Assembly: GCF_003334335.1 (NCBI RefSeq) | Contig: NZ_QOWQ01000004.1 | Length of the DNA stretch: 64,000 nucleotides | Source of the DNA: Escherichia coli | GTDB taxonomy: Bacteria > Pseudomonadota > Gammaproteobacteria > Enterobacterales > Enterobacteriaceae | Direction: 5' to 3' (one strand) | In this document: piece after piece, positions 61,397 to 63,931 of the stretch | Layout: every line of letters starts with the position of its first letter | Numbering within the stretch: the stretch's first letter is position 1 | Made by a program: the position numbers and the translations under genes | Notes under the pieces: model-generated | The model's input: the letters and a program-made list of their open reading frames with translations, nothing else | What the model was told of the DNA's origin: nothing | The model's database searches: none

Positions 61397-63931
61397 ATGG
61401 CCGGGAATGACCGCGAGCCAATTGGACGCAAAGGGAAACCGACGCGTCCGGTCAAACAAAAGGTAAGCCGTCGTCGTTACGAAGATGACGATGATTACGA
61501 CGATTATGATGACTATGAGGATGAAGAACCGATGCCGCGCAAAGGTAAGGGCAAAGGCAAAGGGCGTAAGCCTCGTGGCAAACGCGGCTGGCTATGGCTA
61601 CTGCTAAAACTGGCTATCGTTTTTGCCGTGCTGATCGCCATTTACGGCGTTTATCTCGATCAAAAAATTCGTAGCCGTATTGATGGCAAGGTCTGGCAAC
61701 TGCCTGCGGCAGTTTATGGCCGAATGGTCAATCTTGAGCCAGACATGACCATCAGCAAGAACGAGATGGTGAAGCTGCTGGAGGCGACCCAGTATCGTCA
61801 GGTGTCGAAAATGACCCGTCCTGGCGAATTTACCGTGCAGGCCAACAGCATTGAGATGATTCGCCGTCCGTTTGATTTCCCGGACAGTAAAGAAGGACAG
61901 GTGCGCGCGCGTCTGACCTTTGATGGCGATCATCTGGCGACGATCGTCAATATGGAGAACAACCGTCAGTTCGGTTTCTTCCGTCTTGATCCGCGTCTGA
62001 TCACCATGATCTCTTCGCCAAACGGTGAGCAGCGTCTGTTTGTGCCGCGCAGTGGTTTCCCGGATTTGCTGGTGGATACTTTGCTGGCGACAGAAGACCG
62101 TCATTTTTACGAGCATGATGGAATCAGTCTCTACTCAATCGGACGTGCGGTGCTGGCAAACCTGACCGCCGGACGCACGGTACAGGGTGCGAGTACGCTG
62201 ACGCAACAGCTGGTGAAAAACCTGTTCCTCTCCAGCGAGCGTTCTTACTGGCGTAAAGCGAACGAAGCTTACATGGCGCTGATCATGGACGCGCGTTACA
62301 GCAAAGACCGTATTCTTGAGCTGTATATGAACGAGGTGTATCTCGGTCAGAGCGGCGACAACGAAATCCGCGGCTTCCCGCTGGCAAGCTTGTATTACTT
62401 TGGTCGCCCGGTAGAAGAGCTAAGCCTCGACCAGCAGGCGCTGTTAGTCGGTATGGTGAAAGGGGCGTCCATCTACAACCCGTGGCGTAACCCAAAACTG
62501 GCGCTGGAGCGACGTAATCTGGTGCTGCGTCTGCTGCAACAGCAACAGATTATTGATCAAGAACTCTATGACATGTTGAGTGCCCGTCCGCTGGGGGTTC
62601 AGCCGCGCGGTGGGGTGATCTCTCCTCAGCCAGCCTTTATGCAACTGGTGCGTCAGGAGCTGCAGGCAAAACTGGGCGATAAGGTAAAAGATCTCTCCGG
62701 CGTGAAGATCTTCACTACCTTTGACTCGGTGGCCCAGGACGCGGCAGAAAAAGCCGCCGTGGAAGGCATTCCGGCACTGAAGAAACAGCGTAAGTTGAGC
62801 GATCTTGAAACTGCGATTGTGGTCGTCGACCGCTTTAGTGGTGAAGTTCGTGCGATGGTCGGAGGTTCTGAGCCGCAGTTTGCGGGCTACAACCGTGCGA
62901 TGCAGGCGCGTCGTTCGATTGGTTCCCTTGCAAAACCAGCGACTTATCTGACGGCCTTAAGCCAGCCGAAAATCTATCGTCTGAATACGTGGATTGCGGA
63001 TGCGCCAATTGCGCTGCGTCAGCCGAATGGCCAGGTCTGGTCACCGCAGAATGATGACCGTCGTTATAGCGAAAGCGGCAGAGTGATGCTGGTGGATGCG
63101 TTGACCCGTTCGATGAACGTGCCGACGGTAAATCTGGGGATGGCGCTGGGGCTGCCTGCGGTTACGGAGACCTGGATTAAACTGGGCGTACCGAAAGATC
63201 AGTTGCATCCGGTTCCGGCAATGCTGCTGGGGGCGTTGAACTTAACGCCAATCGAAGTGGCGCAGGCATTCCAGACCATCGCCAGCGGTGGTAACCGTGC
63301 ACCGCTTTCTGCGCTGCGTTCGGTAATCGCGGAAGATGGCAAAGTGCTGTATCAGAGCTTCCCGCAGGCGGAACGCGCTGTTCCGGCGCAGGCGGCGTAT
63401 CTGACACTATGGACCATGCAGCAGGTGGTACAACGCGGTACGGGTCGTCAGCTTGGGGCGAAATACCCGAACCTGCATCTGGCAGGGAAAACAGGGACTA
63501 CCAACAATAACGTAGATACCTGGTTTGCGGGCATTGACGGCAGCACGGTGACCATCACCTGGGTCGGCCGTGATAACAACCAGCCGACCAAACTGTATGG
63601 TGCCAGCGGGGCAATGTCGATTTATCAGCGTTATCTGGCTAACCAGACGCCAACGCCGCTGAATCTTGTTCCGCCAGAAGATATTGCAGATATGGGCGTG
63701 GACTACGACGGCAACTTTGTTTGCAGCGGTGGCATGCGTATCTTGCCGGTCTGGACCAGCGATCCGCAATCGCTGTGCCAGCAGAGCGAGATGCAGCAGC
63801 AGCCGTCAGGCAATCCGTTTGATCAGTCTTCTCAGCCGCAGCAACAGCCGCAACAGCAACCTGCTCAGCAAGAGCAGAAAGACAGCGACGGTGTAGCCGG
63901 TTGGATCAAGGATATGTTTGGTAGTAATTAA
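61397..63931 (+). CDS. mrcB: Penicillin-binding protein 1B (bifunctional glycosyltransferase/transpeptidase) MrcB
   Basis: 844 aa starting [14 protein letters not shown]; GT motif [10 protein letters not shown]; TP motifs [13 protein letters not shown]. Confidence 0.96.

Follow-up and report, generated by a model that had tools for sequence, protein, structure and literature searches.

The 5' end of mrcB is very likely translated from two in-frame start codons on one mRNA, giving PBP1b in an alpha and a gamma form, and the TTG at 61382 that lies upstream of both goes unused. All coordinates refer to the window, meaning the whole 64,000-nucleotide stretch of Escherichia coli DNA that was analysed (contig NZ_QOWQ01000004.1 of assembly GCF_003334335.1). 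Initiation at the ATG at 61397, by way of the GGAG at 61386, would produce alpha with a 64-residue cytoplasmic tail in four parts, and initiation at the ATG at 61532 (Met46) would produce gamma, which would carry the basic juxtamembrane tract alone. As a major synthase of peptidoglycan, PBP1b is also targeted by beta-lactams, and its two starts would decide how much of it is present at the division site. The two-start charged tail of mrcB is already known and its function largely worked out; the only additions made here beyond the literature are a codon analysis across species and the rejection of the upstream TTG.

The ATG at 61397-61399 is the first codon of an 844-codon open reading frame that ends at 63931 in the ORF listing, and window position 61397 is also where the RefSeq annotation starts mrcB. 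The protein matched the NCBIfam equivalog NF007061 at 1734 bits (cutoff 1120), with residues 1-843 covered, and TIGR02071 (PBP_1b) at 1247.5 bits (cutoff 717.75). The 801 bases around the start are 100% identical to many E. coli chromosomes, in which the genes are annotated as hrpB and mrcB, and the chromosomal order hrpB-mrcB is as in E. coli, with hrpB at 58727-61201 and mrcB directly downstream from 61397. Residues 1-79 match Pfam PF14812 (PBP1_TM; E = 4.7e-26), meaning that the charged tail and transmembrane (TM) helix are already curated as a Pfam family, and PF14814 (the UB2H domain) follows the PBP1_TM region at residues 113-166 of a 167-residue query. Every solved structure of PBP1b has its first residue at 53-58 and its last at 804, and the cytoplasmic tail has therefore never been resolved. 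Beyond residue 804, where these structures end, the C-terminus contains a second low-complexity region, rich in Gln and Pro (63785-63900). The features referred to below are as follows.

61382-61384, plus strand: in-frame TTG five codons before the alpha ATG, the mechanical opening of the ORF and not a credible start (-2.5 kcal/mol; overlaps the alpha Shine-Dalgarno sequence).
61386-61389, plus strand: GGAG, Shine-Dalgarno (SD) sequence of the alpha ATG, at a spacing of 7 nt (duplex -6.6 kcal/mol).
61397-63931, plus strand: mrcB/ponB coding sequence, PBP1b alpha form, 844 aa with the stop included (ORF, RefSeq start, NF007061 and TIGR02071 above their cutoffs).
61397-61438, plus strand: N-terminal peptide, residues 1-14, in alpha only, a reported FtsA binder (near-invariant motif; function from PMC13423804).
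61439-61480, plus strand: basic linker, residues 15-28 (residues 1-28 have a net charge of +8).
61481-61528, plus strand: acidic D/E/Y tract, residues 29-44, net charge -13 (charge count; 9/18-nt DNA period).
61517-61521, plus strand: GAGGA, an SD-like run within the codons for Glu41 and Asp42, at a spacing of 10 nt from the gamma ATG (-6.1 kcal/mol).
61532-61534, plus strand: ATG of Met46, start codon of the gamma isoform (Ribo-RET; start-capable codon in 101/104 species among the matches listed).
61538-61588, plus strand: basic juxtamembrane tract, residues 48-64, common to both isoforms (charge count; 6-nt DNA period).
61589-61657, plus strand: TM signal-anchor helix, residues 65-87 (hydrophobic stretch; PF14812).

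The original prediction had described an acidic run followed by a basic run in the cytoplasmic tail. Both were found, the acidic run at residues 30-44 (61484-61528) and the basic run at residues 49-64 (61541-61588), and their segregation is beyond chance: the charge-segregation statistic lay 6.8 sd over shuffled sequences, with 0 of 20,000 shuffles as high, and the longest run of D, E and Y is 17 residues vs a shuffle maximum of 9. By segment, the net charge is +8 for residues 1-28, -13 for residues 29-44 and +10 for residues 45-64. The TM helix begins at W65 (61589), with M46 located 19 residues earlier. At the DNA level, Tandem Repeats Finder reported a 9/18-nt period at 61477-61524, made up of DDY codons, and a 6-nt period at 61539-61563, made up of KG codons.

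Within E. coli, the tail region was present at ≥95% identity in 5,425 of 5,426 complete genomes. The most divergent matches span 258 and 252 bases vs the 261-base query, which therefore represent whole-codon differences. In-frame length variants occur in both tracts (61477-61563), with one D, DDY or KG unit fewer (sequences H32, H33, L030, L080, P0002 and P0021), a polymorphism that slippage within the repeats of 9 nt and 6 nt could explain. Separately, in three public proteins (P0020, P0045 and P0089, the last of which represents 45 member sequences) the N-terminal peptide is replaced by sequence from another frame (e.g. MTASQL...), and the protein is normal from KVSRRR onward. They may be genuine frameshift variants without the FtsA-binding peptide, or errors of assembly.

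Two isoforms of PBP1b were described in the 1980s (Kato, 1984; Broome-Smith, 1985; both as cited in PMC13423804). Retapamulin ribosome profiling (Ribo-RET) in E. coli gave a specific peak at the internal start already verified for mrcB, which served as one of three positive controls, and Ribo-RET in Salmonella identified the homologous proteoform pair, with peptides unique to the long form detected; the Salmonella authors describe the disordered extension of PBP1b as basic-then-acidic. The statement in the original prediction that M46 is the known start of a shorter isoform is thus borne out in E. coli and Salmonella. A single N-terminus, which would have spoken against it, is contradicted by two immunoblot bands of 94.2 and 88.9 kDa in a study that used M46L for its alpha-only constructs (PMC13423804).

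The same study (Navarro et al, Nat Microbiol, 2026; PMC13423804) reports enrichment and activity at the division site for alpha alone. Alpha localised to the septum, and neither gamma nor alpha(R6E) did so; on supported bilayers, FtsZ was displaced from FtsA by the alpha N-terminal peptide; and protection of the septum against osmotic rupture needed the recruitment of PBP1b. In earlier work, survival under inhibition of PBP1a and PBP3 had been tied to alpha's first residues (Chalut, 2001, as cited in PMC13423804). These results apply directly to the window: it carries the same gene, its residues 1-60 are the sequence printed in that paper, and both start codons and the FtsA-binding N-terminal peptide are the same, with no difference between the two. 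Residues 1-14 are the peptide tested there, with R6, P8, I9, G10 and R11 all present. By the authors' own grading, binding of this peptide to FtsA is a proposal for which they call for validation by biochemistry and structure. The role in divisome interaction that the original prediction had suggested for the charged tail accordingly holds for its first ~14 residues, as proposed FtsA binding, and the localisation and interaction tests it had suggested have largely been done already for that peptide. The acidic tract is absent from the discussion in PMC13423804, where the word 'acidic' does not appear in the text.

For comparison across Enterobacterales, species-representative genomes were searched with a degenerate DNA pattern for DREPIGRKG, which gave at least 120 loci, with 104 species analysable. 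Homologues from protein searches were mostly fragments; these were used for N-termini, and full-length work relied on the loci from the DNA pattern. Across Enterobacterales, the motif M[AS]G[ND]DREPIGRKG hardly varies. Among the matches listed, the four-part charge architecture was seen in 99/99 species, as was the acidic D/E/Y tract (99/99), at lengths of 10-36 aa. The net charge of the N-terminal part ranged from +3 to +10 across the species listed, and that of the gamma tail from +5 to +12, with zero acidic residues in the gamma tail of any listed species.

The codon at the position of Met46 was start-capable in 101 of 104 species among the matches listed (ATG in 67, GTG in 29 and TTG in 5); in the rest of the tail, 1.0% of codons are start-capable. 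The residues in this column, again among the matches listed, are only M (66), V (29) and L (5), and the flanking columns vary widely. Every Val in the column is encoded by GTG (29 species among the matches listed). As evidence for a gamma start this is only suggestive, because GTG is the majority codon for Val (57%), 3 of the 37 columns with a conserved Val are likewise all GTG, and ATG to GTG is the sole one-step route to Val. The Leu result is sharper. In five species of Rosenbergiella and Tatumella, the gamma column is the sole all-TTG column among 74 all-Leu columns, and TTG accounts for 14% of Leu codons in the mrcB genes of these genera. Taken together, the cross-species codons, with their GTG and TTG swaps and two losses, modestly strengthen the case that gamma is under selection.

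The gamma codon is start-incapable in 3 of 104 species among the matches listed, namely Kluyvera intermedia and two species of Pseudescherichia; another Kluyvera locus (L071) is likewise without a gamma start and was left out of the count for frame problems. The two Pseudescherichia loci (L022 and L036) and the two Kluyvera loci (L068 and L071) have GCG or CGT there, with no ATG, GTG or TTG at the gamma position or in its vicinity; their N-terminal peptide is retained, as are both the acidic and the basic tract. Pseudescherichia and Kluyvera are therefore probably natural alpha-only species, judged by their codons, and gamma would then be dispensable in some lineages. The opposite arrangement may occur in Mixta sp. 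Marseille-Q2659 (L059), in which an in-frame TAG interrupts the acidic tract, with a GTG equivalent to the gamma start four codons further on. The context of that start, TAC TAG GAG GAA AGA CCG GTG, includes a strong SD (-10.2 kcal/mol), and, if the TAG is not a sequencing error, this locus would possibly make a gamma-type protein only. The Kluyvera and Pseudescherichia species and Mixta L059, as possible alpha-only and gamma-only organisms, would serve as natural test cases.

The ribosome-binding site of gamma is largely intrinsic to the Asp and Glu codons of the acidic tract. Its SD-like run in the window is weak, with a duplex energy (-6.1 kcal/mol) that is equalled by 8% of 18-nt windows in mrcB, and the 10-nt spacing is long. 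For each lineage, we resampled synonymous codons over the seven positions that directly precede the gamma start. In lineages with ATG, the observed energy was -5.8 vs a simulated -5.2 kcal/mol, with a median rank of 0.48, and synonymous selection on the gamma SD is not supported there. Median ranks against the synonymous resamples were 0.23 in GTG lineages and 0.11 in TTG lineages, a modest excess that comes mostly from one clade (Erwiniaceae) and is confounded by phylogeny. No significant mRNA structure was detected around the gamma start (z = -1.16). A promoter and terminator scan of 61100-61700 returned no matches, and hence no evidence for a separate internal promoter of gamma.

These results bear on whether gamma has a purpose of its own. 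We advance tentatively, as a possibility in which we place limited confidence, that the acidic tract acts as a spacer in the protein and as the ribosome-binding site of gamma in the RNA, with the internal start selected and gamma having a specific role. The alternative that survives best, although we consider it unlikely, is that Met46 is kept for a protein reason, as a hydrophobic residue in the PMPRK motif, and that gamma is a by-product, not itself selected, of an SD-like run that arose by accident. In its favour, Asp and Glu codons are SD-like in themselves; M, V and L are conservative substitutes for one another; two lineages do without the start codon; and a gamma-specific function is not known from the literature. 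However, a protein constraint on a hydrophobic residue does not fit the choice of TTG in the Leu lineages, which use it here and at no other invariant Leu column (1/74) and never use CTG, the commonest Leu codon, at this position. Nor does it fit the absence of the remaining codons one step away from ATG (those for Ile, Thr, Lys and Arg, and CTG), which were found in 0 of 104 species among the matches listed. The tendency of GTG and TTG lineages toward SDs above the synonymous expectation, and the initiation observed in two genera, likewise count against an unselected by-product. The internal start appears to be kept by selection across Enterobacterales through exchanges among ATG, GTG and TTG, with losses in Kluyvera and Pseudescherichia, a pattern that on the tentative reading above would imply a gamma-specific role.

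The short species could instead be a proteolysis product of alpha with no internal initiation, an account we regard as very improbable. The tail does contain dibasic sites, such as the RRR at residues 25-27. There is also a reported precedent in this protein, since Henderson, Dombrosky and Young (J Bacteriol, 1994) are said to have attributed a third PBP1b form ('beta') to cleavage by OmpT while samples were being prepared. Against proteolysis as the source of gamma, Ribo-RET catches initiating ribosomes on the internal start, the single substitution M46L is used to abolish gamma (PMC13423804), and a start-capable codon is conserved at the gamma position, all of which favour internal initiation.

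The original prediction had further noted that the ORF opens five codons upstream of the ATG and had proposed that several initiation sites could give different tails. Two of the three sites, the ATGs at 61397 and 61532, are credible. The TTG at 61382 is indeed there, in frame and just after a TGA at 61376, but it does not hold up as a start. Its anti-SD duplex reaches -2.5 kcal/mol, compared with -6.6 kcal/mol for the ATG at 61397 and -6.1 kcal/mol for the ATG at 61532, and it lies within a conserved untranslated string, TTGCGGAG, that holds the GGAG of the ATG. That GGAG is found at the same position in 104/104 species among the matches listed. An in-frame TTG at the -5 position occurs in ~44 of 104 species among the matches listed; these belong nearly all to genera of Enterobacteriaceae (Escherichia, Citrobacter, Enterobacter, Salmonella, Klebsiella and Cedecea), and elsewhere it is mostly absent. 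The codon is TAG in six close relatives (L022, L035, L036, L051, L055 and L116), and nine others (L003, L011, L017, L029, L054, L060, L066, L067 and L113) have an in-frame stop among the five codons that separate position -5 from the ATG. Use of all three sites to give three tails, for which the mechanical ORF opening and the recurrence of the TTG could be cited, is thus scarcely credible given the poor duplex, the overlap with the SD of the ATG, the stops in relatives, the RefSeq start at the ATG and the profiling papers in E. coli and Salmonella, which give two sites. The TTG was rejected as a start, and the reading with two starts is retained.

Upstream of the alpha start, the 5' UTR of mrcB contains a hairpin with a perfect 9-bp stem at 61330-61353 and a second hairpin, CGGGC-N6-GCCTG, at 61361-61378. 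Most Enterobacteriaceae relatives have the latter in either the CAGGC-N6-GCCTG or the CGGGC-N6-GCCTG form, which differ in a G-U vs an A-U pair at the second position. The fold of the 5' UTR as a whole is weak (z = -2.0).

Further upstream, the intergenic region between hrpB and mrcB holds a G+C-rich imperfect palindrome (61204-61300) with 27-nt arms that are 81% complementary, together with the sub-arms CCCTCTCCCT/AGGGAGAGGG and a run of 4.5 copies of TCACCC. It is a dispersed repeat that E. coli genomes carry at 1-5 places each (median 2), and a copy covering at least 80% of the palindrome query was present in only 3,482 of 5,426 E. coli genomes. No annotation lies under 61204-61300. A search of 61000-61800 against Rfam returned only sub-threshold matches to microRNA precursors inside 61214-61300, which we treated as chance matches to the palindrome. 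The element is presumably akin to the small intergenic repeats of E. coli, which it resembles.

Returning to the proposal of two starts, the parts of the alpha tail can be assigned candidate functions. The first ~14 residues of alpha direct recruitment to the septum, probably through the site on FtsA that FtsZ occupies with its C-terminal peptide. The basic juxtamembrane tract may be read as a positive-inside anchor, and the acidic tract as a spacer repelled by the membrane, which would hold the FtsA-binding peptide off the anionic bilayer. The GAN codons that encode the acidic tract may double as a purine-rich ribosome-binding site for gamma. If this dual role is true, the acidic tract would set the ratio of alpha to gamma, and hence the share of PBP1b at the septum, and the ratio could also be tuned by ribosomes translating the alpha ORF as they cross the gamma start.

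The E. coli genes infB (the forms of IF2) and clpB (ClpB-80) offer the closest parallels, as they too produce a long and a short proteoform from one mRNA with two in-frame starts, and all three genes are positive controls for Ribo-RET. Unlike in infB and clpB, the isoforms of mrcB differ in a disordered, membrane-proximal localisation tail and not in a folded domain. Gram-positive class A PBPs likewise use an extended cytoplasmic N-terminus for recruitment to the division site (a comparison drawn in PMC13423804). Their partner is GpsB, whereas that of PBP1b is FtsA, and the motif differs. We know of no two-start arrangement in the GpsB-binding Gram-positive class A PBPs. Finally, the N-terminal peptide of PBP1b is predicted to occupy the same site on FtsA (E303) as FtsZ's C-terminal peptide, and it competes with FtsZ in vitro (PMC13423804); in PBP1b, however, the FtsA binder is the N-terminal peptide of a membrane enzyme, and in FtsZ it is the C-terminal tail of a cytoskeletal protein.
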